This document shows positions 37,433 to 58,259 of a DNA stretch of 64,000 nucleotides, one piece after another. Numbering within the stretch: the first letter of the stretch is position 1; each line of letters begins with the position of its first letter. Origin of the DNA: a virus. The stretch is taken from the IMG/VR virus record IMGVR_UViG_3300036939_000082, positions 96,001-160,000 of that record, one strand, 5' to 3'. The position numbers and the translations under genes were made by a program. The notes under the pieces are model-generated. The model ran no database searches, was not told where the DNA came from, and saw only the letters and a list, made by a program, of their open reading frames with translations.

Positions 37433-37870
37433 CTACATAGCTAATAAGAGTTTGTTTTTCGCACTCTCTTCCTCGGACAAGGGATTAACTTGATCTGTTT
37501 TTACGATTTCCCAGAACATCCTTTGGAGAAGTTCGGAATTTTCTTTGCAAGCCACAATTGCTTGCCCGTCTATTCTTGAAGGAATATACGACTCTACATC
37601 GATATTCACGCGCAAAAAAGGTTCACATTCTACCCATTCTCCGATTTTTCGATTGAAACGCTTGGAATGCTTTTCTACTTTGATCCTGCATTTCTTGTAT
37701 TTCAATGTGACGGTTTCAAGTTCACTAGGAGTGACATCGATCACTTTTTGGAAAATCAGAAACCAGTGAGAGTGCCTGGGGTTGAAAAATCCACCAAACA
37801 TTTCTCCTGGCTCAAGTTGCCAAACGAGTGTGTTTTCGGAGTTATCGGTAAGAGGATGTTTGTAAGGCAT
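37433..37870 (-). CDS. hypothetical protein (likely start MPYKH at 37870)
   Basis: ORF between a promoter and a palindrome. Confidence 0.6.
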   Translation of the reverse strand: MPYKHPLTDNSENTLVWQLEPGEMFGGFFNPRHSHWFLIFQKVIDVTPSELETVTLKYKKCRIKVEKHSKRFNRKIGEWVECEPFLRVNIDVESYIPSRIDGQAIVACKENSELLQRMFWEIVKTDQVNPLSEEESAKNKLLLAM

Positions 37871-38098
37871 GATTTTCACGCTTTTGCGTTTGTGTTTATA
37901 CTTTATTGTAACACGGTTAACATATTTTTGTAAAATAAAAAACATCGCAAAATTTTTAATTACGCGATGTGTTTTTAACTGTTTATTTTTGAGCGCGCTT
38001 TTTTCTAAGTTCGCTCTTGCGTGTATTTATTGTAACATATTTAACGAGTCAATTGACATAAAAACGCATCGCGTAAATTAATCGCGATGCGTTTTTGT

Positions 38099-38386
38099 TT
38101 ATTTGAGAGATTTTCTAATAACTTCTAAATCTGGGAGACTGTCAGTCTTTACAACTTTCCAATGCTTCAAGTTTCGATAAATACTTTGATAGTGTTTTTT
38201 AACGTATTCATCCGAGCATTCTGCGTAGTCTGGTAATTGGCTTCTCATGGCAGTAATTCTCGTAGCATGAGTCCCGCACCGCTTGTCAATTCCCCACAAT
38301 TCTTTTTTAGGCATTAAGTGTGGCGCACTTTTGGGAATGTGAACTGGGAATGCTATTTGATAGTTGATTCTTGTCTTGACGGTCAT
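38099..38386 (-). CDS. small basic hypothetical protein
   Basis: ORF between a promoter and a palindrome. Confidence 0.6.
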   Translation of the reverse strand: MTVKTRINYQIAFPVHIPKSAPHLMPKKELWGIDKRCGTHATRITAMRSQLPDYAECSDEYVKKHYQSIYRNLKHWKVVKTDSLPDLEVIRKSLK

Positions 38387-38443: not shown

Positions 38444-41400
38444 TTACTGCTTGGCTTTTTCAACAATATCTCGCAACTGAGTGCGAATAACTCTTTGCGC
38501 CTGCGGTGATTCCAAATGCTTCATAATTTCGCCCAATAACTCTTCCGCTGCAAAACTTGGATTTGCTCCCTGAACTACAATGTCTCCAAAAACAAATTGA
38601 ACGTTAAATTCTGTTGTCTGCGAAGATGCAGCGGGCGGAAGGGGAATTGGGGTTGCGGGGACAGGCAATGCTCGAAGGCTGGAAACCTCTACCCGATCGC
38701 CCTGGTTGATCGATTCCAATAAAGGTAGGTTCGACCGCGTAGCAGCAGCATTGACAACAAACTCCCCAGGCGACGCCAGAATAGGTACGCGATCGCCCGT
38801 AGATGTTCCCATTCCCGATATCAAACCGCCAGTCGCATAACGCTGTACTGGCTGAACCTGCAGCGGGTGGCTCGGCAAAGGCTGACTCCGCAGCGAAGGA
38901 GCGAACAATCCGCCGACGAACGGAATATTAGCTAAAACCCCCATTGAATTAGTTACAACCCACTGAATCAGATTCCAAATTCCTTGGAAAACTCTAGTAA
39001 TAGCGCTTCCTACAACAACAAATGTTTCTTTTAGTACCCACCCGACCGCCACAACTCCAGAAATTATCGCCAAAAAAGGTGCGGCTGCAACTACCGCAGC
39101 AGAAATACCCGCAATCACAGCCCCAATACCGCCCGTGACGGCTGGAACGACAGCCGCAGCAAAAACTCCTCCTATTGTCGCCAGCGCGCTCCCGACTCCC
39201 GATACAGCAGAGCCGATCGCCCCAACAGCGCCTGTTATGCCAGCAAGCACCGCGCCAAAATTTGCTGCCAAAGTTAAAGTAACGACTGTTCCGGCAATCG
39301 CAGCGCCGACAGTTGCTACTGCTCGAACAATTTTGGAGACAGCGTTAAATACAAATCCTAGCGTTTTAATTACACCGATCAGTACGAATGAAATTGTTTT
39401 AATGATTTTAATCAAACTAAAAGTTAAAGTTTTAACTGGAATCAGCAATACATTGATAATTGATGATGCCAAACCTGATATGTTTCCATCCACTCCGCTA
39501 AAGATGCTGGCGATCGTCCCAAAAATTTGAGCGAATGGCTCGACGATGGTATTTCCCAATTCGACGAGCGCGCTCCACACGCTATCAATTTCCTGAAAGA
39601 GCGTTCCAGTTACTTGGGCGATCGAATCCCAAATTCCCCCAAAAACGCCTGCAACGATACTCCCGATAAAGCTGAAGACTTTTCCCAATACCCATCCAAC
39701 TGCCACAATTCCCAGAAGCAAAGGAATAAAAGGAAGGAAGGGGGAGATTGCTGCGGTTGCTGAGGCAAGGATTGCACTCAAACCGCTGAGAATCACTGGA
39801 ACTAAGACTCCGCTAAATATTCCAGCGACACCGGTGGCAATAGTTGAAAACTCAATTAACGCGAGACTCAACCCAGCAACAAACGCTCCAGCACTTACAA
39901 ACAGTCCCCCTATTTGCGTTAAAGAAGAAAATACCGCTAAAGCAGCGCCTATCCTCAACAGCGATTCAACCAATACGCCAAATACAGTAAAAGCAAATTT
40001 GCCCGCTTGGATTAACGATCCAATGATTCCTGCAACTGTTCCCACGATTGCAGAAGCAACACTGGAAATAGACTCAAGAATCCACGAGCTAAAATTGCCC
40101 AGACTATTTTTTGCATTTTCCACAACCTCTTGAATGCCGCCAATGTTGTCTTTGTAAGATCGGTACAGCAAAAATAGGGCAGAGCTAATTCCCAATATCA
40201 AAGGTAAAAACGGCAGCAGCGGTACAATCATTGATTTGTAGGCAAGTTTGGCAGCACCCGCGACAAATCCGTAAGATGCGGCGATCGCCCCGTTAGCGCC
40301 GCCCACAATTCCTGCTTTAGTCAAAGCAGATGCGGCGATCGCGCTGTCTGCAGCTACGGAACTTGCTGCGTTCGTTGCGTAAAAAGCTCGCATCCCCGGC
40401 ATCGCCGTCCGAATATCTAAGAATGAAGTCACCAAGTCATTCATCATAAATATCGGTGTCGCTAGTTGCGGGGCGATATTCGACAATACGGAACCGATCG
40501 ACAGAGAGAGACTTCTAACGCTTTCACCGACCTGCTTCCTAGCAGCGGTATCTTGCTCGACTGCTAACGTTACTCGCCGATGAGCAGATTCTAGATTCTT
40601 CAAACCTTGAGTATAGACTTTGCTATCGATCGCCCCTTGTTTGTAGAGATCGTTCAACCGCACCTGCCTCGCTGTAATTCTGTGAAGGTTGGTTTGGGAC
40701 TCTACCGGATTCCGACTAACGCTCGACATTGCCAACTTCGCATCAAACTTCAACCCGCCAAGCGCTTCGCCAGCTTCGGCAATTTTAGACGGAGATAGCG
40801 CGGTGAGCGATCGATCTAAAAATCTGTAAATTGCATTGCCTTCAATCTTTGCCGACAGCGCCAAGTCCGACAGCCGACTTTGAATAGTCTCTGTAGTGTT
40901 GACCCAGTTTTTGCGAATCCAGTAAGTCGGTCCCGGCGAGGCTTCCGACAAATCGCCCTGCAATTGCTGTCCGGTTTGTTTCGCTTTCCTGCCGATGCCC
41001 GCGATCGCCCCGACAATTTTGCCTCCGGTTTTTTCCCAAATTGCGCCCACTGTTTTTAAAGGCTGTTCGAGGAACTGGGCGATCGCTGCACCTAGTTCTC
41101 CTAACTCCGACATTAGTCGCCCTTTCAATTCTGTGGCGTTGCTACCGAGAACGCCGATACTAGCAATTATGTCGGGAATCCCTTTGAAAACGCTAAAGAT
41201 GTCGAACGGCAGGGAAACATCTAGACCTAACTTGAACAGAGCAACGCCTACATCTTTTAGTCCAACCAATATTTCAGCTACAACGCCTGCCATCTTCAAT
41301 CCAAAAGTACCGATATCTTTTGCAAAACCGAGGAAACTGCCAGCAATCTCGCTCGCGGTCAGCGCAACGCCCGCTAATTGTGCCTTGAAGCTTGCAAAAC

Positions 41401-44400
41401 CTTCTTGTACCCCCGCGAAGGCTTCCTTGGATTTTCGAGAGAATGACGACAGAAGCGCAACAAACCTCAATACAGATTTGTATAAACCTAGAACGGCGGT
41501 CATTACCCGAGCCGGCCAGTCCAGCACAAAACGAAATGCCCATACAAACTTTAGTGCGAAGGCAGACAGCTCAATTCCTATTTGGGTAAAAACCCACAAA
41601 ACCTTGAACAAAGGTGGGAGTACAGTTGTAGAAAAATTAACTATTCCAGCTAGTATTTTGCCGACAACTTGCCCGAAGTCTTTACCCGCAGAAGCTGCGC
41701 GATCGGTGTCGCGACCAGCAGAAGTCAATCCCTGAGAAAACTGCCCCAAGTTTTTTAGAATCCATCCCAAAAATTCACCCAAATGTCTGACAGCAGATGA
41801 AACGCCTGTTAGTTTTGATGTCATTTCATCGGAGGCGATCGCCCCGCTGTTTACCGCTCTAGCAATATCGAACAAAGTTTGACCAAAATCAATAGCTGAC
41901 TTACTCGCAGAAATCACTATACCGATCAAATCTGTCAGGGGCTGCTGAACCTCAGAAAATAAACTGGTTGCAAAATTAGAGATGAATCCATTTAGGGATT
42001 TAAACCCATTTTTTATTACATCTAATAAATTAAATTTCGCAATAATTTGAGTGGCTACCCATGTCGCAGGCGCTATCAACTGTAGCAGCGAGTTTGTTAT
42101 CTTGGTAACGGCTTCCTTCCACGCTTCAGGAATTTTGACTGTTGGGCTGTGATTCAATAAACCGATCAATGTCTGACCCAGCCATTTGGCAAAGTCTGCG
42201 ATCGGAGTCAATATGGTTTGAAATTCTGCTGCAAACTTCTCCCATTTCCTTTTAATCCAGTCTGCTGCTTTCCCAAAGGCGATCGGGACTTCTTGTAGGG
42301 CTTGCTCAAATAGTTGAGGAACTCTAGAGCTGAAATCTTGCAACCCCGTCAAAACAGTTAAGAACAAATCCTTTCTGTTCAAGAATTCCGTGAGGCGCTG
42401 CCATTGAGCCTGGACGGAAGCGATCGCGCCATTTATACTGGGAATAATTTTAGCGATTTGCTCTTTCACTTTTTCAAACAAAGAGGGAATAGATTCGCCA
42501 AAATTTTTCATTTTTGCAGAAATACCTGTAAATAAATCCGCAGAACTCAAGAAGGTAATAAAATTCGGCCATTCCGACTTAATCCAAGATATTGTTTCGC
42601 CAAACTTTGTACCAATCAACGTTAGGAAGTCCAAAGCTCCTGGAATCATTGGAGTCTCAGACAACCAAACAGATAATTTATTCCATTTCTCTTGAATAAA
42701 TGCAACCGTATTGCTAAGCCTTTCCCCCAGCAAAGCAATTTTGACAAACAGATTTTGAATTGCCGGGATCTCGAATTTCAATCCAACTTCGATCGCCCAC
42801 GCAGACAGCCTACCGCTTAAGTCTTTTAACCTATCAAAAAATCCTTGAAATATTTGCCCGGTAGCCAGCGACTTCTGAACTTCCGACCATTTTTCTCTTA
42901 ACAAACCCGAAAACAATGTAAATTCCAATCCGACCTTAAGCAATCTATCAAACAGCCAACTGAATAAATTAGTTCCGCTCATCCAGCCTACAAACTTACT
43001 CCACGCAGCCTCCAAAATATTTACGGTTGAGAGAAAAGCTTGAGAGATATTTTCTGGCTTAAAAGCTTCGCGCAGCCGATCGCCCGCAACTCGAAATAGA
43101 TCGCTCTGTCGCAACCAGTCTCCTAGCTGTTGCCACGATGATTGAACTTTGACGATCGCCCGATCGAAGTATTCCTCAACGTTCAACATCTTCATGATTT
43201 GGCGGAACTTCGACTCGACTGCAGAAATTGCACCGCCAAACCCTTTCTGAACTGCCGCTGCAATATCTGGGGGCAGTGCGACGAGAATAGTGTTGAAAAA
43301 GCCGCGCCAGAAGTCTCCGACATATTTGAGGGGCGCTGTTAGAGCTTCTGTGATTCCCGGCACCAATCTTTTAAGGCGATCGGGAATTGACTCGGAAGAT
43401 CCGTCTATGGAGCCAAATAGTTGGCTGATGCCGGTGATCGCATCCTTGAACGTAAAATTCTTGATAGACTCCTGAACCTGAAAAATTCCATTTTTAATCG
43501 ACTGCACCGCGAGATCGACCTGTTCCGCGAAAAGTTGTTTGATGGCTGGAAAATGGTGTTTAACGCTGTCGATCGCAAACGCCACAGCATCAGTCACTGA
43601 CTTGACTGCGTTAATCAATATGGATGCAACCATTTCTCCTGCTTGCTCTCCCGACTTGAAGGCTAAAAAGAAGTTATTGATAGATTCAGTTGCGCGTTTG
43701 AGGGTAAAGCCTAACGGTCGGAAAACTTGCTCGATCGCCTCACCGATTCCCCGCAACACTTGGAACGAACCTCGGGCGATCACCTTCAACCCATCGTCCG
43801 CGCTGCGCCCAAAATTCTCAAACGCAAATCCCAGCCCTCGAAAGCCTTCTTGAATTAAAGTAAAATCTCCTTTGAGCGCGGGCAGTATACCTAGGGCGAT
43901 CGTTTTGAAAGCACCCGCCGCTTCCACCAAGCCCCACAGCGCTCCAGCCAAAATCTTGCCCGCGCCAATCCCAATCTTAATTAGCCCGGTCAAAATCGTG
44001 CGGATACCCAAGAAGTTTGCAGCGATTACCGCAGCCGTAAAAGCGACCCCCCCCAGCACTAGAAGCAGCGGAGAAATGCCCGACAGGGAAAATAGTCCGA
44101 AGGCGATCGCCGACAAGCTCATGCTGTTGAATCCCGACAGTACCCCTCCAACTCCATACTTGAAGTTACCGAAGAAGTCGCGAGCCGCATCCCCTAGTTC
44201 CACAAAATTGAGAGTTAGCAAGGCTTTTGCCGATCGTCCAACAAAGTCAACCAAATCGTTGCCCAATTGACTCAGACTGCTTGTAACATACTCCATCCCC
44301 GGTGCAAACAGAATACTGGCACTGCCTACTCCGCGATCTGCAAGATACTGATAGCGGTCGCCCACGGCTAACGCGAAAAAACTTGCAGCTCTAATCGCCT

Positions 44401-47400
44401 GACTTTTGAGATCGTTTGTTGGCGGTGACAGCAATATCTCGCTAGCGGAATTTGTTAAGTTACCGCGCAGGATCGATCCGGTTTCCTTGGCGTTTGCTTG
44501 AATATCGCCCATCCACCCGCCGATCGCCCCAACAGTTTTTTCCCAGTAGTGGCGAATCCAGTAAGTCGGACCGGGAGATCCTTCGGAAACAGCCTTTTGT
44601 AATTCGTACCCAGAATCTTCTGCTGGCTGCACCAAGGAATTAATGTTTGCAGTAATAGCTGAAGCGGTATTGACCCATGCCGCATTTGTACTGGCAGCGC
44701 CTAAATCGCCCAATCCGATCGCCCCGGTCACACCGACACCAACCGTGTTGGCAGTTTTCGGGGCTGCACCGCTAAATATTCCCGCACCTGCTTTGGCAGC
44801 CAAGTACGTTTTTTTCTCGATAAAGTCTTGTTTTCTTGAAGAGATAAAATCTTTAGTTTTGTCAATTCCAGATTTAACTGTACCTTGAATAGAGTTTGCA
44901 ATTTTTGGCGCATTTTCTTTTATACCTTGAATCAAAAAACTCAAGAATTTTTGTGCGGAACTTGTTTCTGCAACTTCTAACGGCAAAAGGTTTTCACGAG
45001 ATCGATCGGCGATCGCCTGTTTAACGGGCAATTGCATAGGTGGGTGTAAAGTGTTTATTGCCATTAGAATTTCGCCTAATACACTATTTATTGCTTCCAG
45101 TTGTACAATTTGTTGCGACTTCCCAGGCTGTCCCGGTGCAAGTTTAATTGCATCATTCAAAGAATCTTGTCCAACCAATGCTTTATCTAGCAATGCTCGA
45201 TCGGGAATCTTCGCTCCCACGGATGCAGCCGTAGCACTCAACCTAGCATTAGAGAACATCCCTTCTTGATTTTTGGCAGATGCTGCCAATTGCTCTTCTA
45301 TATATTTTTGACCGGCTTGATTGATTTTGTAGACATCTTCTGTTTGACCCAGCAGTCCGCCAAGACCTTTTTTCTGTACAGTAATCTTCGTTGCCAAACC
45401 TGCGTATTCTGCTTGAGAGGATAATGATTTTGAATTCAATCCTTGGAGTATCGTGTCTGCAATCTTAAGTTCTTCTTTCTGCATCTGAGTTTGAACTTGC
45501 GTTCTAAACGCAGATTCTTTGTCAAATACATTTCTAATTTCTATAAAATCGGGAATGTGTACCTTATCTAACAGTGGAATTCCCTCTAACGGATTCCATC
45601 CTCTTTTTTGTTGATCTAAATCATTGGAAATATCTTTTTGTCTTGATTGTTCGGTTCTTTTTTCCCATCCTTCACCTTTTAAACCAAGCCCTATTTGATA
45701 TTTGCGCTGCGCTGACACAGAACTTTTTCCTAAATCGGGAGCTTGAGCGGTTGCCAATGACCTTGTTTCTTCTTGAGGCTTGTCAAGTAGAGCAAGCAAA
45801 GATTTAGTATAAAAAGCAATGCGATCCAATGTAGAAACTATTGATACAAAAAGTCCTCTATGTAGGTACAATTCAGACTCGATCGCCCGAGAACCTTGGG
45901 TGAAAAAACCTTCCATTCCGACATAAGTGTTTGTCAGTGAATTTTTGGTATTAACAACAGCTTCTTTACCTTGACTAACAACTAAGTTTGCCTGTTTTGC
46001 TTTACCACTAAAGAAATTGCCAACTGGCGAAAATATACCCGTCAATATGCCAGCAACTTCTTTGGCGGGAGTTAGCAGCCAATTCATTGCCCCTGATATT
46101 CTTTCCACCGCCCCTTCCCATGCAGTTGGGATTTTCTCTGTGGGGTTGTGATTTAAAGCGTCAATAAGACCCAATGCTATTTCTAAAGCAGTATCGACCA
46201 ACGGCATATCGAGAAACCAGTGTACAAACCCCGTCCAAGCTTTTTGAATTGCTTGAACAGAACCGGAGAATAGATTACTAATTGCGGTTGTCAGCTTAAC
46301 CGTTTTTGTCCTAATATCCGCAAAGTCAGTAGTGAAAGCAAGCGTTAGAACAGATAGAGCTGTTGTTATGCCTCCGATTCCCAGTATCAACGTGCCAAGT
46401 TCCCCTAACATTCCTAACCCAAAAATCGGCTTAAGTAAATTGCCAAATTTAGAAATGCTTTTGCCCGCTCCGCTTTGTTGCAGTGTTCCCAACATTGCTG
46501 GAGCGGTTACTGTTGGAGATCCTCTTTGAACAAAGCCGCCCATACTCCGGGCAGAGTGACTTAGCTGCGGTGGCGCTTCCCTTGAGAATCTTCTTTGAAG
46601 CATCGCTTCTATTCTTGTCGCTAGATTCTTATTTCTTTCTTTGTTCGTGGCAAACCTCCAAAGTGTTTGCGCCTGTGCGGTCTGCTGCTGCCTGATTTGA
46701 GCGTGGAGAAGTTGAGCTTGAGTGTCTAATTTCTTACCAACGGAATCAAGAGGCGACAGTACCGAAGTAAGTGCAGCGACGACTTTGCCGAAGCCTATCT
46801 GTAAATTGTCTTGCCACGACAATTTCTGTTTTTCACCCGTAGCTCCTAATGCTATTGAATTGATAAATTCTGTTTTGCGTCGCTGCTTGGCATCATCGGC
46901 TTGGAGCGATTCGGACATTTCTTCTCCTACCCCCTTCGCTGGAGCGACCATCCCTTGTATCGAGCCTGTTATGCTTGCAACAGCTCCCTCCCATGCTGTC
47001 GGTATCTTCTCCGTAGGGTTGTGGTTGAGAGCGTTTATTAAGCCCTGCGCTACGTTCAGTGCTGGCTGTACGATCGCCATCAATTTCCCGCCAAACGCAT
47101 CAATAAATCTTTGCCACGCAGCGGTAACAAAGGCGATCGGCGCTGACAGGGCTTGAGAAAGCATATCGCCAGCAGATCGCGCCAAACTTCCAATACCTAA
47201 AAAGTTGTTTTTAAAGGCTAAATACAAGCCCCCCGCAGCTAGCCCGATCGCCGCAACCCCTGCAATCAAAGGAGCTAGCGGTAGCGCTGCTGCTCCCACC
47301 GCTCCGGCGATCGCTCCGCCAATGCCAGTTAGTCCGGCGATAGTTGCTCCCGACACCGAGACTATCGCTCCAAAACTAGCTCCCAACGCAGCCAGTACCG

Positions 47401-50400: not shown

Positions 50401-53400
50401 GATTTCTCACGCCTTCTACGGCTACATTGCCAAATCCAGTAACTACTTGTCTCGACCTCCCAGAAGCTTCTTGAAGTTCTTTCGCAGCCTGCTTATTTGC
50501 CGATTCAAACTCTTTAAAAGAGGGTATAGTTACTGCAATAAAATCAGCTTGTCGCTGATTAATCTTGTTGATAACATCCTTGACGACCTTTTCGTATTCT
50601 CCACGGTGAAGAGTCTCCCCTATTGTTTTTGCTGTTTTTATTTGAGCTGCATAAGCCTTGATTTCGTCTTCGCCAAACATATTTGTACCCGGTTTCCCCG
50701 GTCTGTCTGACGATCTAATGTTTGACAAAACCGCCATCATGCTATCTCGAAAAGCGTTTAGTTTGCTCGCGTAAGTGCTTTCTGCAGACTTTAGCGCACC
50801 TCTAATCTTTTCAGACGAAGCGGCAGTGTCAATCGATTTATCTCCTTTATCTTTGAATCTAGACAGTTGAATGTCGAAAGCTCTCTCGCTATCTGGTTTA
50901 TCTTTCGATACTTGCGGTAATTTTGTCTTGCTTACGTAAAGGTATTCGGCTTTAATATCTTCAACGTGCAAATTAGCCATCGCCTTCTGGAAATTATTCA
51001 AAAGGTCAATCGCCACATTCTTGCCACCGGCTAACTTCACTAGCTCTTCGTTGCTCGGGGCATTGCCAAATCGAGAAAATTCAGCATCCAACCCGGATCT
51101 TTTCGCTGCCTCCCGGCGTATGTTTTCAAACTGCAAGCCCCGCCCCGCCTTGACATTTTCGCCGCCCCGACCGCTCATTTTTAGCAGTTGGCGACCGATA
51201 TCGGTAACTTGGTACTGTTCTATACCGAATCGGTTGCGACGTTTTTCTACAGCCGCTCCGCTCACGCCCTCGGTAATGCCGTTTTTGTCTTTGAGGTAAT
51301 ATCGGCGTTCTGCATCTGCCAATCCTTTCCCAAAATCAGTTCCCCGCTTGACTTCGGAAATCAAAGCGCGTTCCGATAATGCCTGTTCTTGTCGCTGGGC
51401 TTTAGCTAACTCTTTCTGATAGCGCAGCGCAGCCTTTGATTTGCCAACCCTTTGATCTCCAAGCATTGTCGCTTGCTGCTGAGTTTGGAAGTCTTGAGAA
51501 TAAGCCAGCGGGTTGGCAATTCCGGCAACTGTCGATCTGCGGCGCACTTTATTTGCAACTTCGCTCAAGCCAACCTGTACGTTAGCGCTGCTAGCAACTT
51601 GCTTGACCCGATCGCCCACGCCTGCTATTGCCTCCGAAACTTGCAAGATGCGTCCGACAAACAAGAGCACGTTGCTGGAAATCATCTGGAACGCACCGCC
51701 GATATTCCGCGTCAGCAGCAGCGCGATCGCGAAGACTCCCGAACCGATTACCGGAAGAAATTTAACAAATTGTTCTGCGAGGTTGCCGATGAACCCAGTT
51801 AAATCCGGGGATACATACAGCCCTAAGAATCCCGCTATTCCCTGCATCGCCACATTCAATGCGTCGATCGGGTGCTGGAGGGCGGTGATGATTTTATCTA
51901 AAGTCTGAAATCCGGTAGCGTACTCGTAAGACAAGAATCCGCCGAGTTCGATCAGTCCCACGATCGCGAATTGGATCGGACTCAGCAATCCGTAAATTCT
52001 ACCCAACACGCTAGCAACCGCCAAAATCTCCGGCCAAAAATCCGCAGCAAACCGAACTAATTTATCGAGTTGCAACTGGCGGACGTAAACCATCACCCCG
52101 GCGGTTGCTGCGACTAAATTTTTGGCAAAGAGTTCCGTCAATCTGGTGATTTCACCGATCGGATCTCGGATCAGCCTGACAATTTCAGCAGCGCTTGCCC
52201 CGACGATCGCCCCTACTGTTTTACCCAAATAGGCGATCGCGCCTACTGCCCGCATCGCTGTCTGCTGAAACCCGAAGTTGATGACTCCAAACAAATCGCT
52301 AAAAATTTGCTTGACTAGCGGTACAAAGTTACCGCGCAACAATGCTGCGATCGCGTCACCGTACTGCTGCGTCTTCAGTCGGATCAGTTTAAATGTTGCC
52401 AATATTGCAATCAGCACACCATCTGCCACCGCTACCGCCGCGAGAAGTACGCCCGCTAGCGGGTTTATGACGGAGAACTTAAAGACGTTGGCAAGGATAG
52501 ACGAAACTCCGACAATCTCGTGAACCGTTACCCCAATACCTGTCCCTAATTTGTCAAAGACATCCATAACGGTTGCAGCCATCCCCGGTATCGCCTTCAA
52601 GAATCGGAACAGCACTTCACCGAGATCGACTACCACAAACCGCATGACTTCCAACACCTTGGCGACGGGCATCAAACTGACACCCAAAAGTCTGGTATTG
52701 GCGATCGCGTCTAACATCTCTTGATTGACTGGTTTCAGGATGTTGTACCAAAACAGCATCGTCAGACCCAATCTACTGACAATCTGGACGATCGGGGAAA
52801 CCATCATCAATCCTTGGACGAGCTTGATAAATACTTTCATCGGACCCGATGCGCTTTCAAGGATTTCAACTAGCGATACCAAACGCTTCTCTCTCTCAGC
52901 CAGTCTCCTCGCTGCGGGAGTAGCTAAAACTTGGAATATTTCAGCTTGTTTCCTAGAAATAAAGTCCAGCGGAACTGCACTCCCCGATACCAACCTCGCA
53001 ACTTCGTTCAAGCTCCTATTCAATCCCAGTGCAATATCGACAGGGTTGATGTAGTTAGCAAGATTAAATATTTGGGACAATCCTCCAAAACCACCCTTCT
53101 TAATAATTCCCGCCAATCCTTTGGTTCGGATGTAAAAAGCCAAGAACTTAAAAGCTGCTGCCGGGTTGAGAGCTTTCATCAGGATATTAGAAACGGGACT
53201 TAACCCTTCTCTAAATGCGTAAACTGCTCCCGACATTAAATCGGTAAAAATCTTTCTGTAGCTTGAGAAAAGAGCAACTAATTGTTTTGTCGGAAAAAAC
53301 CTCAGCAGCAGATTTAGGTAGCGGGGCGCAGATGCCACAATTAACTGAAAGAATCCGCCCAGAGCTTTAGTTGCAACCAAAAACGCAGCCGACAAGTGTT

Positions 53401-56400
53401 TGCCGATATAGGGAATTTCGAGGATTAAGCCAGCAATGCCAATTACTGCGCGATCGATCGCCAGCAACATTGTTCTTCCAACAGCAGCAGCGACAGATTG
53501 AGCGTTAAGCGAGATCGCCCGCAGGATATCCGTAATTGGAGTCAGCTTGCTGATAATTTCCTGCAATACCGCCAATACTGGCAAAGTAACGATTGCATTG
53601 AAAGTAAAAATAACGAGAGAGGAAATAGCGGAAATAGTCCTGAGCGCAGCGGGTAAAACGGTTCCAGTCAAAAAGCCCATAATCCCCTGAACTGAAGGAG
53701 ACTTAGCTAGCGACACCAGTGCCTTTTCCATCGGCAAAATAGCAGTCACTAGCGGTATCAGGGGCGGCAGCGCCGAGAAAAGCGGGAAAGAAGTAAATGG
53801 ATTGAAACTTAAAATTGGTTCGATTCCGGCGTAAATTTCCTTCCCAATTTCCTTGGACAAATCTCCGACGCGGTGGAGGTAAGCAATCAGTCCTACTAGC
53901 GGGCCTCGAATAAAATCTTTAATTGCTAAGTAAGTTTTGTCGATATCAACATCGATCGCCATTCCCCCCGGGAACATTGCGGGCATGGACTTCGTAAAAG
54001 TTGTCAATCCCTCGCTCAGCCCCTCATTTAACTTCTGCTTCATCCCGACTGACAGGGAATTGAAAATTTTGTCGGAAGTTTTTTCTAGAAATTCCGGCAT
54101 TGCATCGATCGCGCCCATGAATCCCCGCTCAATTCCCCGGATCAATCCGGTGGAAGTGGCGATCGCAATTAGCCCCGGCATCGCATATAAGAAAGCCCTG
54201 GGAATTCCTTCTCCAATAATGAACGCTAACTCTGGAACGATTAGCGCTGCACCTTCTTCTAACTGAGCTAGCAGAGTTAGCGGCAGCGACGACAAAGTTA
54301 GCAGTGTAAAACTGAGAAAGTCAAAATTTTCTTTAACTCCATCAATAATACCCCGCTCGAAGTCTCTGATTTTTGTAACCGCTTCACCAATAACTGAAAG
54401 CTTTCTAACGGAGTTAGCGACTAAATTAATCGCCCCTCCGAGCAGTTGCTGCTGAGCCTCCATTCTTGAGGATTCTGTTATATCTCCAATACCTAGAAAG
54501 GCACGGTTGACCAAACCTGCAGCGTTCCGAATCCTAATAAATAGCTTTTCTAAAAAGGCGATCGTGTAATCCCACTTTTCTCGAATCATATAGGTCGGTC
54601 CCGGCGATGCCTCAGCCAATCCCCCTTGCAACAATTTGCCAATCTGGGCTACGAAATCAGCAAAAGGTGTCAGCAAGTTTTTGATGTAGTTCAGCGTGTA
54701 ATTCCACGAATTCTCGATCGCCTTGCCAGCCAACTGAAAGGGCTGCGCGACGAACTTGAAAATATCGCCTCCGATCGCCCGCCCGGATTTCCGCCAAGCT
54801 TCAAAAGCCGCGGTCGCATATTCAATCGCACTGCTGACTGCTGCAAACGGAGCGGTTAATACCGAACCCGCAACAGATGTGGGAATATCTAGCGCAGCGA
54901 GCAGCGCTTCTGTAAATCCTTGAATTATTCCAACCGCGAAACCGGCAACGGAACTGACGGCGCTGAAAATAGTACCCAGTAAATTGATTTCTGGGTTGAT
55001 TTGTTCGAGGATGGCGTTCAATGCGAGGAAACTGGCGATCGCGATACCGAGCGGAGACAGCGCAAACGACACCGACATCGAAGCCAGCGACCTCGAAACC
55101 ACTGCAATATTTCGCGCAATCCCGCTCAATCCAAAATTGACATCCCTAGATGTGGAAGCAATCGTGTCAGAGAAAGCTTCCGCAGCAAACGAGGCAGTCT
55201 TGAACGGATTGGAAGCCGTACCTTCAAAAGCTCCCATCGCCGCCGGGAAAAATCCGGTCAGCGGAATCACGCTAGCTTGCAGTGCAATTCCAGCAGCAGT
55301 GGCAGTAGCAGCGGCTTGCGAAAATCCAAACAGCACTACACCGACTGTTCCGACAGCAACCGACACCGCCGCAAACCCTGCCGCAAGCACCCCAACTCCG
55401 GCAATCAATCCTCGAACAGGAGACGGCAGGTTGGCGACTGCCAGCAACAGTTTGGTTGAAGCGTCGGCAATCGCGCGCACGATCGGGGCGATCGGTTCGA
55501 TCAAATTAACCTGAACTGCTTCAAAAGCAGAACTGAGCGATCGGAACGAACCCGCCAGGTTATTTTCCATCACCTGCGCCATCGTTTTAGCTGCGCCGGA
55601 TTTCCCTTTAAATTCAATCCCCAGTTCGCCCATCGCTGAGGTTAGTTTGCTGACTGCCGCATTTGCGTCGGGAGCAGTCGTCAAGATCGCATCAAATAAA
55701 TTCTCGCCTTCGGGTATTTGAAAATATCCCGACAACTGACTTAACTGGGCACTCGAAAGATTTCCTAGATATTCATTTGATTTAACTAGGGCGATCGTAG
55801 CAGCATCTAATTGTTGCAGCGCATTTTGATAGTTGCCTGCTTCCCGCAGGAGCGAAGTAAAAACATCTTTATCTGTGGCTAATTTGTCTATACCCTGAGA
55901 TTTAAACAACTTCTCATAATCTTCAACAGCAAAGGAACTGCCCCTACCCGCCAAGCTCAGGCGAGTAAATTCTTGCATTTGGCCGATCGCAGCCGATGCG
56001 CCCGAGATGCCAGTCGTACCAAAAATATCTTTTAATGCAGTAATTTGCTTTGATTGAGCAATTTGTCCTAATTTTTCTACGTCGTCGCCTGCTTGAATTA
56101 TGGAATCCAAGGAAGCCGGATCTAATTGCAGGTTCGTACCGATATCTTGCATGACATCGACAATATTTCGCATTTTGCCGCTCGTATCGGTCAGCGAAAT
56201 ACCGTATTCGTTTAGCGCCATCCTGCCCCTTAGCGTAGGTGCAGCTAATTTTAGGAATGCTCCCCTCGCAGCCGTTCCAGCTTTATCTGCTTGAATCCCG
56301 GCGTTTGACATTACCCCAATCAACGCCGAGGTTTCTTCAATTCCCGCGCCAAACAGAGCGGCGTTTGGCGCAGCGTAACTCATCGCTACACCCAACTGCT

Positions 56401-57409
56401 GAATGTTGGTATTTGCGCTAGCAGCCGAAAGCGCCATAACATCGGTAATGTGTCCTAAATCGCTAACTCCCATCCGCATCCCGCTGAGCACGTTGGAGGC
56501 AATATCGGCCGATTCAGCCAATCCCAGTTGTCCGGCCGAAGCTAAATCCAAAGTTGCCGGAACCCCCGCAAAAATCTGTTGAGCGTTAAAGCCCGCCGCC
56601 GCCAAATATTTTTCGGCATCCGCAGCCTCTCCTGCGGTAAATCGAGTTGTCGCCCCCAATAACTTGGCTTTTTCCCGCAACCGATCTAAATCCTTGCCAG
56701 TAGCTCGCGAGATAGCTGCCACCGCACTCATCTTGTCGTCAAAATCAGCAAAAACTTGAATGGCTTCTTTTCCGGCTTGCTTCAGAGGATTGAGCGCTAT
56801 ATTCCCAACTTGATTGAGCGCTCCAAACTCGCCCTTCCTTTGGGAGAAAAACGCAGCTTTGCGTTCGGCATCGTGCAGGGCAAGCTTGTCCTTGATGACG
56901 CGCTGCTGCCGTTTGAGGACTTCGGTAAATTCCCGCTCCGCTGCCGTTTCGCCCTGAACTTGCTTTCTTAATTCTTTCAGGTTTTTAACGTAAGCGTTGA
57001 CAGCGGTTGTGGCTTTCTTGAACTGGCGATCGTCTAGCACGTCTCCAAAATCAATATTTGCCGCAGTAGCTTTCAATGCCCTAAACTCAGCTTTTAGAGG
57101 CTGCAAGCTCTTTGCCATGCTTCCGGAAGCAGTGTCGAGCGAGCGGGCTGCAGATTTAAATTGACCTGCCAGCCCGCTGCTGTCTACGGATTTGGAAGCG
57201 TCGGCAACCGCTTTTTCCATGCTGCGCAAGTGTTTGACGACAGATTTCATGGAAGAAAAACTGCCGTCTGCAACTAAGAAATTAAACTGACCAACCAGTC
57301 CGTAACGATCTAGACTCTCTTCCAAGATTGCCCCCAAACAACAAAAGCCGCCCCATTGGGTGGGGCGGCCGACGTAGCGTGATATATTAATTTCATTGAA
57401 TTGTACCAA
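38444..57409 (-). CDS. giant phage tail tape measure protein (TP901-like core); probable start TTG 57325 (~6293 aa)
   Basis: FADFDDKMSAVAAIS.AT...REKAKLLGATTRFTA.EAA...LDLASAG...SADIASNVL; C-terminal YATGG...TGDRVP.LASPGEFVVNAAAT; uninterrupted frame. Confidence 0.92.
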   Translation of the reverse strand: MVQFNEINISRYVGRPTQWGGFCCLGAILEESLDRYGLVGQFNFLVADGSFSSMKSVVKHLRSMEKAVADASKSVDSSGLAGQFKSAARSLDTASGSMAKSLQPLKAEFRALKATAANIDFGDVLDDRQFKKATTAVNAYVKNLKELRKQVQGETAAEREFTEVLKRQQRVIKDKLALHDAERKAAFFSQRKGEFGALNQVGNIALNPLKQAGKEAIQVFADFDDKMSAVAAISRATGKDLDRLREKAKLLGATTRFTAGEAADAEKYLAAAGFNAQQIFAGVPATLDLASAGQLGLAESADIASNVLSGMRMGVSDLGHITDVMALSAASANTNIQQLGVAMSYAAPNAALFGAGIEETSALIGVMSNAGIQADKAGTAARGAFLKLAAPTLRGRMALNEYGISLTDTSGKMRNIVDVMQDIGTNLQLDPASLDSIIQAGDDVEKLGQIAQSKQITALKDIFGTTGISGASAAIGQMQEFTRLSLAGRGSSFAVEDYEKLFKSQGIDKLATDKDVFTSLLREAGNYQNALQQLDAATIALVKSNEYLGNLSSAQLSQLSGYFQIPEGENLFDAILTTAPDANAAVSKLTSAMGELGIEFKGKSGAAKTMAQVMENNLAGSFRSLSSAFEAVQVNLIEPIAPIVRAIADASTKLLLAVANLPSPVRGLIAGVGVLAAGFAAVSVAVGTVGVVLFGFSQAAATATAAGIALQASVIPLTGFFPAAMGAFEGTASNPFKTASFAAEAFSDTIASTSRDVNFGLSGIARNIAVVSRSLASMSVSFALSPLGIAIASFLALNAILEQINPEINLLGTIFSAVSSVAGFAVGIIQGFTEALLAALDIPTSVAGSVLTAPFAAVSSAIEYATAAFEAWRKSGRAIGGDIFKFVAQPFQLAGKAIENSWNYTLNYIKNLLTPFADFVAQIGKLLQGGLAEASPGPTYMIREKWDYTIAFLEKLFIRIRNAAGLVNRAFLGIGDITESSRMEAQQQLLGGAINLVANSVRKLSVIGEAVTKIRDFERGIIDGVKENFDFLSFTLLTLSSLPLTLLAQLEEGAALIVPELAFIIGEGIPRAFLYAMPGLIAIATSTGLIRGIERGFMGAIDAMPEFLEKTSDKIFNSLSVGMKQKLNEGLSEGLTTFTKSMPAMFPGGMAIDVDIDKTYLAIKDFIRGPLVGLIAYLHRVGDLSKEIGKEIYAGIEPILSFNPFTSFPLFSALPPLIPLVTAILPMEKALVSLAKSPSVQGIMGFLTGTVLPAALRTISAISSLVIFTFNAIVTLPVLAVLQEIISKLTPITDILRAISLNAQSVAAAVGRTMLLAIDRAVIGIAGLILEIPYIGKHLSAAFLVATKALGGFFQLIVASAPRYLNLLLRFFPTKQLVALFSSYRKIFTDLMSGAVYAFREGLSPVSNILMKALNPAAAFKFLAFYIRTKGLAGIIKKGGFGGLSQIFNLANYINPVDIALGLNRSLNEVARLVSGSAVPLDFISRKQAEIFQVLATPAARRLAEREKRLVSLVEILESASGPMKVFIKLVQGLMMVSPIVQIVSRLGLTMLFWYNILKPVNQEMLDAIANTRLLGVSLMPVAKVLEVMRFVVVDLGEVLFRFLKAIPGMAATVMDVFDKLGTGIGVTVHEIVGVSSILANVFKFSVINPLAGVLLAAVAVADGVLIAILATFKLIRLKTQQYGDAIAALLRGNFVPLVKQIFSDLFGVINFGFQQTAMRAVGAIAYLGKTVGAIVGASAAEIVRLIRDPIGEITRLTELFAKNLVAATAGVMVYVRQLQLDKLVRFAADFWPEILAVASVLGRIYGLLSPIQFAIVGLIELGGFLSYEYATGFQTLDKIITALQHPIDALNVAMQGIAGFLGLYVSPDLTGFIGNLAEQFVKFLPVIGSGVFAIALLLTRNIGGAFQMISSNVLLFVGRILQVSEAIAGVGDRVKQVASSANVQVGLSEVANKVRRRSTVAGIANPLAYSQDFQTQQQATMLGDQRVGKSKAALRYQKELAKAQRQEQALSERALISEVKRGTDFGKGLADAERRYYLKDKNGITEGVSGAAVEKRRNRFGIEQYQVTDIGRQLLKMSGRGGENVKAGRGLQFENIRREAAKRSGLDAEFSRFGNAPSNEELVKLAGGKNVAIDLLNNFQKAMANLHVEDIKAEYLYVSKTKLPQVSKDKPDSERAFDIQLSRFKDKGDKSIDTAASSEKIRGALKSAESTYASKLNAFRDSMMAVLSNIRSSDRPGKPGTNMFGEDEIKAYAAQIKTAKTIGETLHRGEYEKVVKDVINKINQRQADFIAVTIPSFKEFESANKQAAKELQEASGRSRQVVTGFGNVAVEGVRNLGTAMQQSSNLLEGQVTSTRNTLARTFFGWTGIPKILESMRFDKTIAIQARIVQARTEKLIQSEASAALLLKRARERGLDALVKNNPIHGNLDGLLRKLREPEHKQLHQFFNQFIETGKFQREATGQEITKLTGMLEASFGEKRSEFKGVDGLKTFLDRLKSAPDLNKEDIQKLRRFLTHGTGDRGKQLKETDFDTLQKQLTNAGIGGKDELNDLRNSLRRDDSLAAVFDQYLLTGKFVLKASQEQQEQIASLIGLSSARELKNIDKVKLKNPLEQLKVNVQVFLENLDAGFERFNRSTIDKIDSLESKLIKIPFMSVEMAENIVRPLRNFYSGIYKSALSAKDSSIKLAGDLYKAAEVSIKGSKFVQRIEKLNKDFRTAQRNSLEHMMTEGREKAPKTHYQFMGQMFAELTKTDIKDRKTQDTILQSILKDQKDSNGNNISIKDRLNKLGMSNKIEDITKALGKALDVNEARAREIIENPNYTAKSVAPYQVFFAKAFPELIKNFTGGVTALAAKTGAGGLVKKIVADISPVLGKPVLIGISSIIDRARIAMSVGTNRIAREVEGLIGTNPFSNFLNNFSRFLARSGDSMSKFFVDRASGFDAERAKSWTVKIVDKAGELFKAVAGVLGQAGNQARSQQGGILGAIGNLFSGIKNFFSNVFGNKDIANLQKHKAAAERLAQSQGDSRLGLAAKRRAATLGDRIEYTKQFNSPASKAKAALFGLAELLKTASQKVGQGADALNARSRQAAIPQSETTIREASRGGRRHYRSLERRGLIDSADVSIDSGMAEYGNNILPLTEKISASILKGASSAARGISTYFQGAATRTETAWQEATNRITGNNWWTMVKRAAWAGVKIVSSLNHRASDVTSAAWKNTEHSTTANMNQMAQAAAGTGAEIARDMQRATQVTQQSIARIPQAAEQATTKSVGFFHKLVGAVGGVGKAGMAVGGAVTAAGFAAQTAFFSLQNMGFIDEETAQSLYKVTELFTLIGAVGGLAAPVLAALGASFGAIVSVSGATIAGLTGIGGAIAGAVGAAALPLAPLIAGVAAIGLAAGGLYLAFKNNFLGIGSLARSAGDMLSQALSAPIAFVTAAWQRFIDAFGGKLMAIVQPALNVAQGLINALNHNPTEKIPTAWEGAVASITGSIQGMVAPAKGVGEEMSESLQADDAKQRRKTEFINSIALGATGEKQKLSWQDNLQIGFGKVVAALTSVLSPLDSVGKKLDTQAQLLHAQIRQQQTAQAQTLWRFATNKERNKNLATRIEAMLQRRFSREAPPQLSHSARSMGGFVQRGSPTVTAPAMLGTLQQSGAGKSISKFGNLLKPIFGLGMLGELGTLILGIGGITTALSVLTLAFTTDFADIRTKTVKLTTAISNLFSGSVQAIQKAWTGFVHWFLDMPLVDTALEIALGLIDALNHNPTEKIPTAWEGAVERISGAMNWLLTPAKEVAGILTGIFSPVGNFFSGKAKQANLVVSQGKEAVVNTKNSLTNTYVGMEGFFTQGSRAIESELYLHRGLFVSIVSTLDRIAFYTKSLLALLDKPQEETRSLATAQAPDLGKSSVSAQRKYQIGLGLKGEGWEKRTEQSRQKDISNDLDQQKRGWNPLEGIPLLDKVHIPDFIEIRNVFDKESAFRTQVQTQMQKEELKIADTILQGLNSKSLSSQAEYAGLATKITVQKKGLGGLLGQTEDVYKINQAGQKYIEEQLAASAKNQEGMFSNARLSATAASVGAKIPDRALLDKALVGQDSLNDAIKLAPGQPGKSQQIVQLEAINSVLGEILMAINTLHPPMQLPVKQAIADRSRENLLPLEVAETSSAQKFLSFLIQGIKENAPKIANSIQGTVKSGIDKTKDFISSRKQDFIEKKTYLAAKAGAGIFSGAAPKTANTVGVGVTGAIGLGDLGAASTNAAWVNTASAITANINSLVQPAEDSGYELQKAVSEGSPGPTYWIRHYWEKTVGAIGGWMGDIQANAKETGSILRGNLTNSASEILLSPPTNDLKSQAIRAASFFALAVGDRYQYLADRGVGSASILFAPGMEYVTSSLSQLGNDLVDFVGRSAKALLTLNFVELGDAARDFFGNFKYGVGGVLSGFNSMSLSAIAFGLFSLSGISPLLLVLGGVAFTAAVIAANFLGIRTILTGLIKIGIGAGKILAGALWGLVEAAGAFKTIALGILPALKGDFTLIQEGFRGLGFAFENFGRSADDGLKVIARGSFQVLRGIGEAIEQVFRPLGFTLKRATESINNFFLAFKSGEQAGEMVASILINAVKSVTDAVAFAIDSVKHHFPAIKQLFAEQVDLAVQSIKNGIFQVQESIKNFTFKDAITGISQLFGSIDGSSESIPDRLKRLVPGITEALTAPLKYVGDFWRGFFNTILVALPPDIAAAVQKGFGGAISAVESKFRQIMKMLNVEEYFDRAIVKVQSSWQQLGDWLRQSDLFRVAGDRLREAFKPENISQAFLSTVNILEAAWSKFVGWMSGTNLFSWLFDRLLKVGLEFTLFSGLLREKWSEVQKSLATGQIFQGFFDRLKDLSGRLSAWAIEVGLKFEIPAIQNLFVKIALLGERLSNTVAFIQEKWNKLSVWLSETPMIPGALDFLTLIGTKFGETISWIKSEWPNFITFLSSADLFTGISAKMKNFGESIPSLFEKVKEQIAKIIPSINGAIASVQAQWQRLTEFLNRKDLFLTVLTGLQDFSSRVPQLFEQALQEVPIAFGKAADWIKRKWEKFAAEFQTILTPIADFAKWLGQTLIGLLNHSPTVKIPEAWKEAVTKITNSLLQLIAPATWVATQIIAKFNLLDVIKNGFKSLNGFISNFATSLFSEVQQPLTDLIGIVISASKSAIDFGQTLFDIARAVNSGAIASDEMTSKLTGVSSAVRHLGEFLGWILKNLGQFSQGLTSAGRDTDRAASAGKDFGQVVGKILAGIVNFSTTVLPPLFKVLWVFTQIGIELSAFALKFVWAFRFVLDWPARVMTAVLGLYKSVLRFVALLSSFSRKSKEAFAGVQEGFASFKAQLAGVALTASEIAGSFLGFAKDIGTFGLKMAGVVAEILVGLKDVGVALFKLGLDVSLPFDIFSVFKGIPDIIASIGVLGSNATELKGRLMSELGELGAAIAQFLEQPLKTVGAIWEKTGGKIVGAIAGIGRKAKQTGQQLQGDLSEASPGPTYWIRKNWVNTTETIQSRLSDLALSAKIEGNAIYRFLDRSLTALSPSKIAEAGEALGGLKFDAKLAMSSVSRNPVESQTNLHRITARQVRLNDLYKQGAIDSKVYTQGLKNLESAHRRVTLAVEQDTAARKQVGESVRSLSLSIGSVLSNIAPQLATPIFMMNDLVTSFLDIRTAMPGMRAFYATNAASSVAADSAIAASALTKAGIVGGANGAIAASYGFVAGAAKLAYKSMIVPLLPFLPLILGISSALFLLYRSYKDNIGGIQEVVENAKNSLGNFSSWILESISSVASAIVGTVAGIIGSLIQAGKFAFTVFGVLVESLLRIGAALAVFSSLTQIGGLFVSAGAFVAGLSLALIEFSTIATGVAGIFSGVLVPVILSGLSAILASATAAISPFLPFIPLLLGIVAVGWVLGKVFSFIGSIVAGVFGGIWDSIAQVTGTLFQEIDSVWSALVELGNTIVEPFAQIFGTIASIFSGVDGNISGLASSIINVLLIPVKTLTFSLIKIIKTISFVLIGVIKTLGFVFNAVSKIVRAVATVGAAIAGTVVTLTLAANFGAVLAGITGAVGAIGSAVSGVGSALATIGGVFAAAVVPAVTGGIGAVIAGISAAVVAAAPFLAIISGVVAVGWVLKETFVVVGSAITRVFQGIWNLIQWVVTNSMGVLANIPFVGGLFAPSLRSQPLPSHPLQVQPVQRYATGGLISGMGTSTGDRVPILASPGEFVVNAAATRSNLPLLESINQGDRVEVSSLRALPVPATPIPLPPAASSQTTEFNVQFVFGDIVVQGANPSFAAEELLGEIMKHLESPQAQRVIRTQLRDIVEKAKQ
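57326..57378 (-). promoter_or_regulatory. leader motif B copy 2, before the TMP
   Basis: gctacgtc-ggccgcccca-cccaa-tggggcggct-tttgttgtttgggg; TGGTACAAT at 57400-57408. Confidence 0.75.
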
Positions 57410-57413
57410 AAAT

Positions 57414-58259
57414 ATGGATTTAAGAGAATCGGTAGCAAAAGCCCAATTACAGCTACTCGGAATTCAATCGACGATCGAAGCTGAAGGTTGGGACAAAGAT
57501 CCGGATTGGGTAACGCGAGGTAAAGACGGTAAATTTGGGGCAAAAGATAGTTCCGATGGGGAAGGGTCAAACAAAAATCTACAAAATTTAAAAATAGAAG
57601 ATTTGCAAGCAAGTTATGAGTTATTAACTAAACAGGCAAAAGAAGTGTACGCCAACACAATAAATTCTGAAAGCTCAAAAAAAGTACACAATAAAATTTC
57701 TACTGCAATTGCTAAATTCTTTGATACCAATACTGGTAAAATTTATAAACAAGCAGTAGAAGAGTGCAAAAAAGTAGAACCAAAAAAATATATAGATGTC
57801 GTAAACCAAAAAATAAAACAACATCCCTTAGAAGCGGAGATTGGAGCGGTAATACTTGGAACATTAACCGGACTGTGTTTGGCGGGGACAGCAATATTTG
57901 CCTCGGAAGCACTTGTAGCGGCTGCTGCTTTCAGTATTAACGCAGCAGCAAAACAAGAAACTAAATTGAGCGCGATAGCAGCGGGACAAGCAGTTAGAAA
58001 TAAAGTTGATAACACAATTAAGGCTGGTGTTGCCGGAGTTTTAGTCAACAAGTCACGTCAGAAGTTGGAAGACAAAGCAACAGAGGGATTCAAAAGAAGA
58101 GAACAAACAAACAAGATAGTTGACGAATTAAAATTAAAGTCGGTCTTAGAAAAAAAACAGGCAGAGAAGTTTGCTGAGTTAATATATGACGCTTATGCAG
58201 ATCCTTCGGAAAGAATAAATAACGAGCTACAGTTATTAGACAAGCTATTAAAAAAATAA
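57414..58259 (+). CDS. hypothetical protein with RGKDGKFG motif and a hydrophobic segment
   Basis: WVTRGKDGKFG; AVILGTLTGLCLAGTAIFA. Confidence 0.6.
   Translation: MDLRESVAKAQLQLLGIQSTIEAEGWDKDPDWVTRGKDGKFGAKDSSDGEGSNKNLQNLKIEDLQASYELLTKQAKEVYANTINSESSKKVHNKISTAIAKFFDTNTGKIYKQAVEECKKVEPKKYIDVVNQKIKQHPLEAEIGAVILGTLTGLCLAGTAIFASEALVAAAAFSINAAAKQETKLSAIAAGQAVRNKVDNTIKAGVAGVLVNKSRQKLEDKATEGFKRREQTNKIVDELKLKSVLEKKQAEKFAELIYDAYADPSERINNELQLLDKLLKK

Follow-up and report, generated by a model that had tools for sequence, protein, structure and literature searches.

A 19-kb gene for a giant tail tape measure in a virus genome from biocrust, and the tail length that it predicts

Introduction

How long a tail would be built by a phage whose tape measure gene takes up 19 kb, and would that tail be a contractile one? 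These questions are raised by a stretch of 64,000 nucleotides (called the window here), which covers bases 96001-160000 of the 188,942-bp IMG/VR record IMGVR_UViG_3300036939_000082 (genome G000) and comes from a biocrust (desert soil crust) metagenome. On the minus strand of the window, at 38444-57409, the listing of open reading frames (ORFs) gives a single stop-free frame of 6,321 codons counted from a TTG at 57409; residue numbers given below are those within this frame. In lambda, T4, P2, T5 and TP901-1 the tape measure corresponds to about 0.13-0.18 nm of tail per residue. The length of the tape measure sets the length of the tail, according to the account of Katsura and Hendrix (1984) that is given in PMC12619734.

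Here we describe the gene, its protein family and the tail genes of the same genome. We hold, with a probability of roughly 0.6, that the gene encodes a full-length ruler of a contractile-tailed phage of ~190 kb that infects a HIP1-rich biocrust cyanobacterium.

Identity of the tape measure protein

The frame product matched the family PF10145 (PhageMin_Tail) with 138.1 bits against a gathering cut-off of 33.2, and the profile was covered from end to end (1-201 of 201). In a six-frame search of the genome this family scored 145.5 bits and gave one match only, and the other tape measure models, PF09718 and PF20155, had no match anywhere in the genome. The sequence search of the Protein Data Bank (PDB) returned 9g8s_w ('Tail tape measure') as the sole relative with a solved structure, at E=2e-27 over residues 215-411. 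Tape measure families of the PHROG collection matched both parts of the protein, 16 of them in the N-terminal half and five in the C-terminal half. Judged by sequence comparison, the product of the 19-kb gene is the sole recognisable tape measure of the ~190-kb genome and a full-length homologue of the TP901-type tape measures.

Throughout the family the C-terminus keeps the motif YATGGLISGMGTSTGDRVPILASPGEFVVN (about residues 6190-6222 here). Many tape measures end in a glycine-rich GEFV motif, and the one found here presumably resembles that of lambda gpH, whose C-terminal model is the unmatched PF09718. The initial annotation of this DNA had described an uninterrupted 19-kb ORF of ~6293 residues with a canonical tape measure core and a C-terminal motif; the stop-free frame read from TTG 57325, the full PF10145 profile and the family alignment bear out these claims. 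The TTG at 57325 is probably the true start, giving 6,293 residues, since the homologues, the annotated Nostoc protein included, begin at the equivalent residue.

Anatomy of the protein

The protein can be read as a succession of regions whose positions are collected in Table 1. Residues 1-500 comprise a charged N-terminal region and the PF10145 core, and are followed by a long, hydrophobic and well conserved region (residues 500-1950) and then by the charged, least conserved stretch. A Gly/Ala-rich hydrophobic block lies at residues 3321-3401, and a second and larger one lies near the C-terminus. In the repeat array, W4759, W4803, W4841, W4909, W4947 and W5056 are invariant or nearly so across the family. 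Twenty-one hydrophobic, membrane-like segments were counted along the whole chain.

A module of 70-115 residues is present in seven copies that are mutually 21-66% identical and end in LNH(N/S)PT.KIP.AW or (A/G)SPGPTY.IR..W. The giant size of the protein seems to have been reached by repeated duplication of this ruler unit. Searches for enzyme or cargo domains with Pfam (where only PF10145 stood above threshold), PHROGs and PDB sequences found none, and we infer that the protein is an enzyme-free ruler that has grown by duplication of its units.

Table 1. Positions of the tape measure gene, its protein regions and other features. Positions are those of the window unless G000 is named; residues are in the 6,321-codon frame.
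Feature	Position	Strand	Remarks
Tape measure gene, favoured start TTG 57325 (6,293 aa)	38444..57325	-	Homologue starts at residue-29/30 position
Alternative starts	TTG 57409; ATG 57250	-	6,321 aa; 6,268 aa
PF10145 tape measure core, residues 245-464	56018..56677	-	Pfam
Ruler-unit module copy 1, residues 861-960	54530..54829	-	W...ASPGPTYMIR..W
Charged, least conserved stretch, residues ~2000-3250	47660..51412	-	23-32% charged; family identity 0.28-0.35
Ruler-unit module copy 2, residues 3142-3241	47687..47986	-	Degenerate, LNHRAS...AAW
Ruler-unit module copy 3, residues 3387-3486	46952..47251	-	LNHNPTEKIPTAW
Ruler-unit module copy 4, residues 3678-3777	46079..46378	-	LNHNPTEKIPTAW
Ruler-unit module copy 5, residues 4204-4303	44501..44800	-	GSPGPTYWIR..W
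~40-aa Trp-marked repeat array, residues ~4700-5100	42110..43312	-	Self-matches 4718-4772/4964-5016 and 4794-4950/4900-5059
Ruler-unit module copy 6, residues 5011-5110	42080..42379	-	LNHSPTVKIPEAW
Ruler-unit module copy 7, residues 5417-5516	40862..41161	-	ASPGPTYWIR..W
Gly/Ala-rich hydrophobic C-terminal block, residues 5722-6138 (~400 aa)	38996..40246	-	Holds the largest of the 21 membrane-like segments
C-terminal motif YATGGL.SG.GT.TGDRVP...S.GEFVVN.	38690..38842	-	G6194, G6195, E6216, L6231, N6235 invariant
Tail sheath, 1,000 aa	G000 88300-91302 (7.7 to 4.7 kb before window start)	-	phrog_23 E=1.3e-14
gp19-type tail tube, 189 aa	Directly downstream of sheath		Atlas score 0.95 to Phage_TTP_2 and gp19 clusters
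Weak baseplate-hub (gp26-like) match, 341 aa	7105..8130	+	phrog_150 E=7e-6
Candidate central spike, 1,470 aa, weak N-terminal gp5/VgrG-type OB domain	10064..14476	+	PF04717 E=4.6e-4 (below cut-off); phrog_430 E=5e-5
Three tail fibre/spike genes, 320, 292 and 400 aa	26172..29894	-	phrog_4636 E=4e-90; phrog_8745; PF13884
Terminator, 16-bp stem, after both small genes	37382-37417	-	
Gene of unknown function, 170 aa, co-oriented	37433-37945	-	
Gene of unknown function, 95 aa, co-oriented	38099-38386	-	
Hairpin, 9 bp, G+C-rich (GCCGCCCCA / TGGGGCGGC), and T-run	57336-57369	-	11 nt before likely start
287-aa charged, coiled-coil-like protein	57396-58259	+	One hydrophobic segment; no family match

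Protein family

A collection of 5.8 billion proteins (JGI, ENA, Logan, NCBI) yielded 23 homologues of 5,812-7,845 residues, including a Crocosphaera protein of 5,812 residues from NCBI, and 17 of the 23 span 83-98% of the query. An alignment of 18 sequences, down to about 30% identity, has a mean sequence length of 6,810 residues with a standard deviation of 557 (coefficient of variation 8%), and invariant residues are spread along the chain from residue 183 to residue 6256. Length differences are gathered in hot spots at residues ~750-1000, 3000-3250, 3500-4250, 5250-5500 and 5750-6000. The members of the family all have 5,800-8,200 residues and are collinear over their whole length.

Among virus records the family is sparse. 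The IMG/VR scan found as close relatives only a sister genome (G001, UViG 3300035684_000001; 188,553 bp, with a gene of 6,319 codons in place of 6,321) and one 21.6-kb fragment. Among 50,697 deposited phage records no relative extended past the core domain, the best being 33% identical over the core only. The N-terminal 971 residues used as a query against GTDB genome contigs gave only a weak Lentisphaerae match, and none of the sequencing runs listed as holding the gene was an RNA run.

The best placed relative is carried by pC052_F of Nostoc sp. C052 (NZ_CP040278.1), a circular molecule of 223 kb that was obtained from a pure culture out of the liverwort Blasia, annotated automatically and filed as a plasmid. 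Its protein WP_179070682.1 (8,170 residues; 'phage tail tape measure protein' in RefSeq) belongs to the same family, being 47.5% identical over the N-terminal 940 residues and collinear over 92% of the query. It is ~1,900 residues longer than the protein described here, and its motifs, four of NH[NS]PT and two of PGPT, are placed elsewhere. No paper on WP_179070682.1 or its tail was found in the literature.

Contractile tail genes

The genome holds a gene for a tail sheath, directly followed by one for a tail tube. The sheath protein scored 0.96 to sheath clusters of the ESM atlas. There are 512 sheath homologues, and a profile of 68 matched the solved phage sheath 9ezm at E=1.7e-50, as well as 8bky and the sheaths of T4 (gp18), Afp and PVC. 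The protein is about twice the usual size and has tail-fibre-like repeats at residues ~210-375 (phrog_1980); its homologues of 990-1,150 residues form a family of their own. The predicted structure of the tube gave TM scores of 0.62-0.68 when normalised by the query and as high as 0.85 with the matched model as reference; its match to PF06841 is only at E=0.019, and the tube profile had no match among PDB sequences. Single sheath and single tube proteins gave nothing useful in PDB sequence searches.

The order of sheath and tube is kept in the relatives, and the sheath homologues that were looked up lay on short contigs. Co-occurrence of the sheath with a giant tape measure was covered in G000, G001 and pC052_F, the last of which has a 1,001-residue sheath (49% identical to that of G000) followed by a tube-like gene of 175 residues. 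The deposited phages gave one weak sheath match. Among the genomes searched, 401 from the phylum of a metagenome-assembled genome that bears a sheath homologue, none matched at E<=1e-40, a result that is uninformative on hosts.

Further structural genes were found with varied support. The portal matched phrog_2662 at E=3e-19, a match to the baseplate wedge family Tail_P2_I was weak (E=1.7e-4), and the candidate spike of 1,470 residues had no match in the PDB sequence search. Since the sheath and the adjacent tube gene stand in the same genome as the tape measure, we conclude that the phage is contractile-tailed. The initial annotation had suggested a contractile tail from gp5- and gp26-like baseplate genes in the window, and such matches do exist, though they are weak, with E values of about 1e-4 to 1e-5; its suggestion is far better supported by the sheath and tube genes, which it had left to be found and which lie ~43 kb from the tape measure gene.

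Genome form and host

The record is labelled as a provirus in IMG/VR, and CheckV rates it as a 98% complete virus. The map of the sister genome agrees with this one after reversal and circular permutation, and within each record the two ends of the other lie 2-3 kb apart. The molecule is thus circular or circularly permuted, and this mutual permutation makes the provirus label doubtful. With the permuted maps and the Nostoc relative filed as a plasmid, a phage-plasmid lifestyle is possible.

The HIP1 octamer GCGATCGC occurs 127 times in the 189 kb, where 1.6 copies are expected from base composition, and 112 times in the sister genome; 17 sites lie inside 38444-57409. This excess is a signature of a cyanobacterial host. 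The Lys/Orn oxygenase PF13434, a marker of the published Microcoleus phages, was not found in this genome.

Predicted tail and proposed mechanism

Applied to 6,293 residues, the ratios cited above give 0.8-1.1 micrometres, or 0.94 micrometre at 0.15 nm per residue, and a tail of about this length is the simplest prediction by extrapolation from the genes alone. A few copies of the ruler would fill the lumen of the growing tube as extended helical bundles, and tube and sheath would polymerise from the baseplate hub up to the N-terminal end of the ruler. After contraction the ruler would probably be expelled ahead of the DNA. Hydrophobic segments of other tape measures have been proposed to form a channel across the envelope, and the 21 segments found here, including the ~400-residue block near the C-terminus, may likewise line a channel through the cell envelope. 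With a rise of ~4 nm per hexameric ring, we estimate ~230 rings, that is ~1,400 sheath and 1,400 tube subunits.

A wider proposal, to which we give somewhat less than even odds, is that the family as a whole builds contractile tails of ~1 micrometre (0.8-1.3), twice the longest described. Such a tail would be made with ~1,400 copies of a 110-kDa sheath protein and would outweigh the filled head; it would have evolved as a means of getting to the trichomes of filamentous cyanobacteria that form crusts and mats, past their bundles and thick polysaccharide sheaths. Stepwise duplication of units of 70-115 residues would have lengthened the ruler, and tail length would accordingly vary in quanta within the family. 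For the present phage, the crossing of cyanobacterial sheaths is a plausible role of the tail in view of the biocrust source and the host signature.

Comparison with known systems

The nearest counterparts in size are the tape measures of the Thermus phages P23-45 (gp96) and P74-26, with 5,002 residues. [quoted passage not shown] The present protein is ~26% longer, in keeping with the earlier statement that it exceeds the ~5000-residue Thermus proteins. P23-45 and P74-26 are non-contractile siphoviruses of a thermophile, whereas this phage bears a sheath. In addition, gp96 carries an N-terminal virion RNA polymerase (two-barrel, DFDGD) and a metallopeptidase, and neither was detected in this protein: gp96 structures stayed unmatched in the PDB sequence search at E<=0.1, a D.D.D string occurs just once, as DVDID within a hydrophobic stretch (residue 1153), and no peptidase family was found in either half by Pfam or PHROGs. 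The protein and the gp96-type tape measures are analogues, not members of one family.

Among contractile tails, T4 gp29 has 590 residues for a tail of about 100 nm and P2 gpT has 815 for about 135 nm. In these phages the ruler lies in the tube of a sheath-bearing tail that is assembled on a baseplate hub, as proposed here, and the hub, spike, sheath and ruler genes of T4 are scattered as they are in this genome. The present protein is 8-10 times longer than theirs and its core is of the TP901-type PF10145. Exceptional contractile tails are those of the large myoviruses Bacillus phage 0305phi8-36 (486 nm), phage G (453 nm) and Synechococcus phage S-CREM2 (about 418 nm) (PMC7232213, PMC10665884), and the tail predicted here would be about twice as long.

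The Microcoleus 'jumbo' myophages My-WqHQDG and My-ElHQDG (about 239 kb; bioRxiv 10.1101/2023.04.12.536658) are uncultured and contractile-tailed, and their hosts are filamentous sheath-forming cyanobacteria. Three members of the giant tape measure family stand on contigs of 242.4-242.8 kb that are similar to them, as compared by size and description only, and these myophages may be kin of the family. The main text of that report is silent on tape measures, the word 'tape' occurring 0 times. Our literature search found no described giant cyanophage tape measure, no micrometre contractile tail and no tape measure of such size in a sheath-bearing phage.

Alternative readings

A frame of this length could be an artefact, arising from chimeric assembly, from the collapse of a repeat or from a pseudogene in decay that by chance is still open, and the record is a short-read metagenome assembly; no support for such an origin was found. 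An independent Logan assembly of the probable source run holds the whole stretch in a single 27.6-kb contig with 0 differences, and a second biocrust study contains, on a contig of 51.6 kb, a collinear copy that agrees in length and is identical at roughly 85%. Misassembly, the danger that had been named at the outset, is excluded by this independent assembly together with the second sample. The internal repeats, just 21-66% identical as protein, are too diverged to mislead an assembler, and a complete long-frame homologue is present in the finished Nostoc genome. Against the sister gene, which differs in length by two codons, the ratio of nonsynonymous to synonymous substitution rates (dN/dS) is 0.117 for the whole gene and stays within 0.04-0.16 in all 500-codon windows; since it is low in every window, purifying selection acts on all 19 kb, and we treat an artefact as a negligible risk. 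We also consider it improbable that the gene serves a tailocin, an extracellular contractile injection system (eCIS) or a plasmid function, with a length unrelated to a virion tail. The filing of the Nostoc relative as a plasmid and the matches of the sheath profile to Afp and PVC sheaths would agree with such a role; however, this genome also encodes a portal, tail fibres and a lysin along with anti-defence genes and a replication module, its completeness was assessed as that of a virus, the phage sheaths 9ezm and 8bky match well ahead of Afp and PVC, and eCIS tape measures are short.

It is also conceivable, though in our view rather unlikely, that the protein is a tape measure homologue of which only a part measures, the rest being proteolysed, folded back, or else cargo or conduit, such as ejected material that forms a membrane channel or spans the envelope, with a tail far short of 0.9 micrometre, e.g. 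0.2-0.5 micrometre. P23-45 gp96 offers a precedent that weighs against a full-length ruler, as it joins an RNA polymerase (~1,100 residues), a metallopeptidase and membrane domains to the ruler (PMC10770324); even so, the P23-45 tail measures about 0.8-0.9 micrometre for 5,002 residues with the cargo included. The 21 hydrophobic segments and the block at residues 5722-6138 have the look of material that inserts into membranes rather than of a ruler, yet hydrophobic segments are usual in ordinary tape measures that obey the length rule, e.g. T5 pb2. The seven modules could mark processing sites, and a tail of 0.9 micrometre is unprecedented among the contractile tails found described, of which the longest have 418-486 nm (PMC10665884, PMC7232213). 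Several further observations count against a full-length ruler: the middle of the protein (residues 3500-4250) is variable, 18-23% identical and rich in indels; a sheath of 110-kDa subunits would by our estimate weigh ~150 MDa, more than the 189-kb DNA at ~123 MDa, which is a large cost; and the tape measure gene stands isolated, ~43 kb from the sheath and tube genes, with a divergent upstream neighbour and no tail-chaperone-like ORF upstream, so that the usual positional argument is missing. The typical placement, after tube and chaperone and before the distal-tail or baseplate genes, is not seen, the order being scattered as in T4-like phages. The tail length itself is an extrapolation. On the other side, searches with Pfam, PHROGs and PDB sequences brought up no globular or enzymatic domain, and the total length varies by just 8% across a family so diverged. 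AlphaFold2 (AF2) models of two 1,200-residue samples (residues 1950-3149 and 4400-5599) show only helix and coil, strands of at least three residues being absent, and this all-helical prediction is weak evidence since the input was a single sequence and the confidence low (pLDDT of about 40).

Gene start, transcription unit and neighbouring genes

The favoured start has a GGGGG run 5 nt upstream, and the region that holds the hairpin before it is kept in the sister genome. The hairpin looks like a terminator or attenuator directly ahead of the 19-kb gene, and its position hints at antitermination control of late expression. The terminator that follows the two small co-oriented genes is the probable end of the tape measure transcription unit. 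On the other strand, the divergent 287-residue gene may, by its position, encode an assembly factor specific to the tape measure. The minus-strand ORFs at 57310-57612 and 57743-58051 were considered as tail chaperones and rejected, as they look like non-coding low-complexity translations with the 287-residue gene opposite.

Other genes in the window are noted for orientation. On the plus strand, 59814-64000 (continuing in the genome to 65114) encodes a DarB-like methyltransferase-helicase of 1,766 residues (phrog_10089, E=7e-294). It joins an Eco57I-like methylase to SNF2 and helicase C domains and is a candidate for an anti-restriction protein carried in the virion. At 30476-32002, on the minus strand, lies a two-domain lysin with an N-terminal GH19 chitinase/lysozyme-like and a C-terminal M23 peptidase domain; M23 peptidases are internal to many tape measures and here have this separate gene. 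A 506-residue fusion at 21900-23420 (minus strand), of a thymidylate-synthase-like part with a pterin-binding DUF4346, may serve to hypermodify pyrimidines. The stretch 32664-35916 (plus strand) encodes a histidine kinase with a GAF domain and, after it, two response-regulator receiver proteins. Between the putative spike gene and small unknown genes, 15231-16043 (plus strand) encodes a PAPS-reductase-like protein (phrog_424, E=2e-48).

Significance of the finding

The kind of protein, the ruler principle and the automatically annotated homologues in RefSeq were already known. The novelty lies in a combination: the ruler exceeds the longest studied by 26-63%, is enzyme-free and modular, belongs to a lineage of contractile-tailed cyanophages and predicts a tail of ~1 micrometre. 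Tail length belongs to the few virion dimensions that a gene can reveal, and this family extends the reading to 6,000-8,000 residues and to a sheath-bearing phage. The finding is also relevant to the ecology of biocrusts and mats, where phages of the key cyanobacteria are almost unknown.

If the length rule holds, these tails would be the longest contractile injection devices known. It would then be asked how a sheath of 1 micrometre contracts in register, how a 700-kDa ruler stays soluble without a recognisable chaperone, what such a tail costs, and whether the length is selected for its reach through extracellular sheaths. Should the rule fail, there would be no clearer example of a tape measure that mostly serves another purpose. 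The relative in a cultured Nostoc strain (pC052_F) provides an experimental handle by which either outcome is obtainable.

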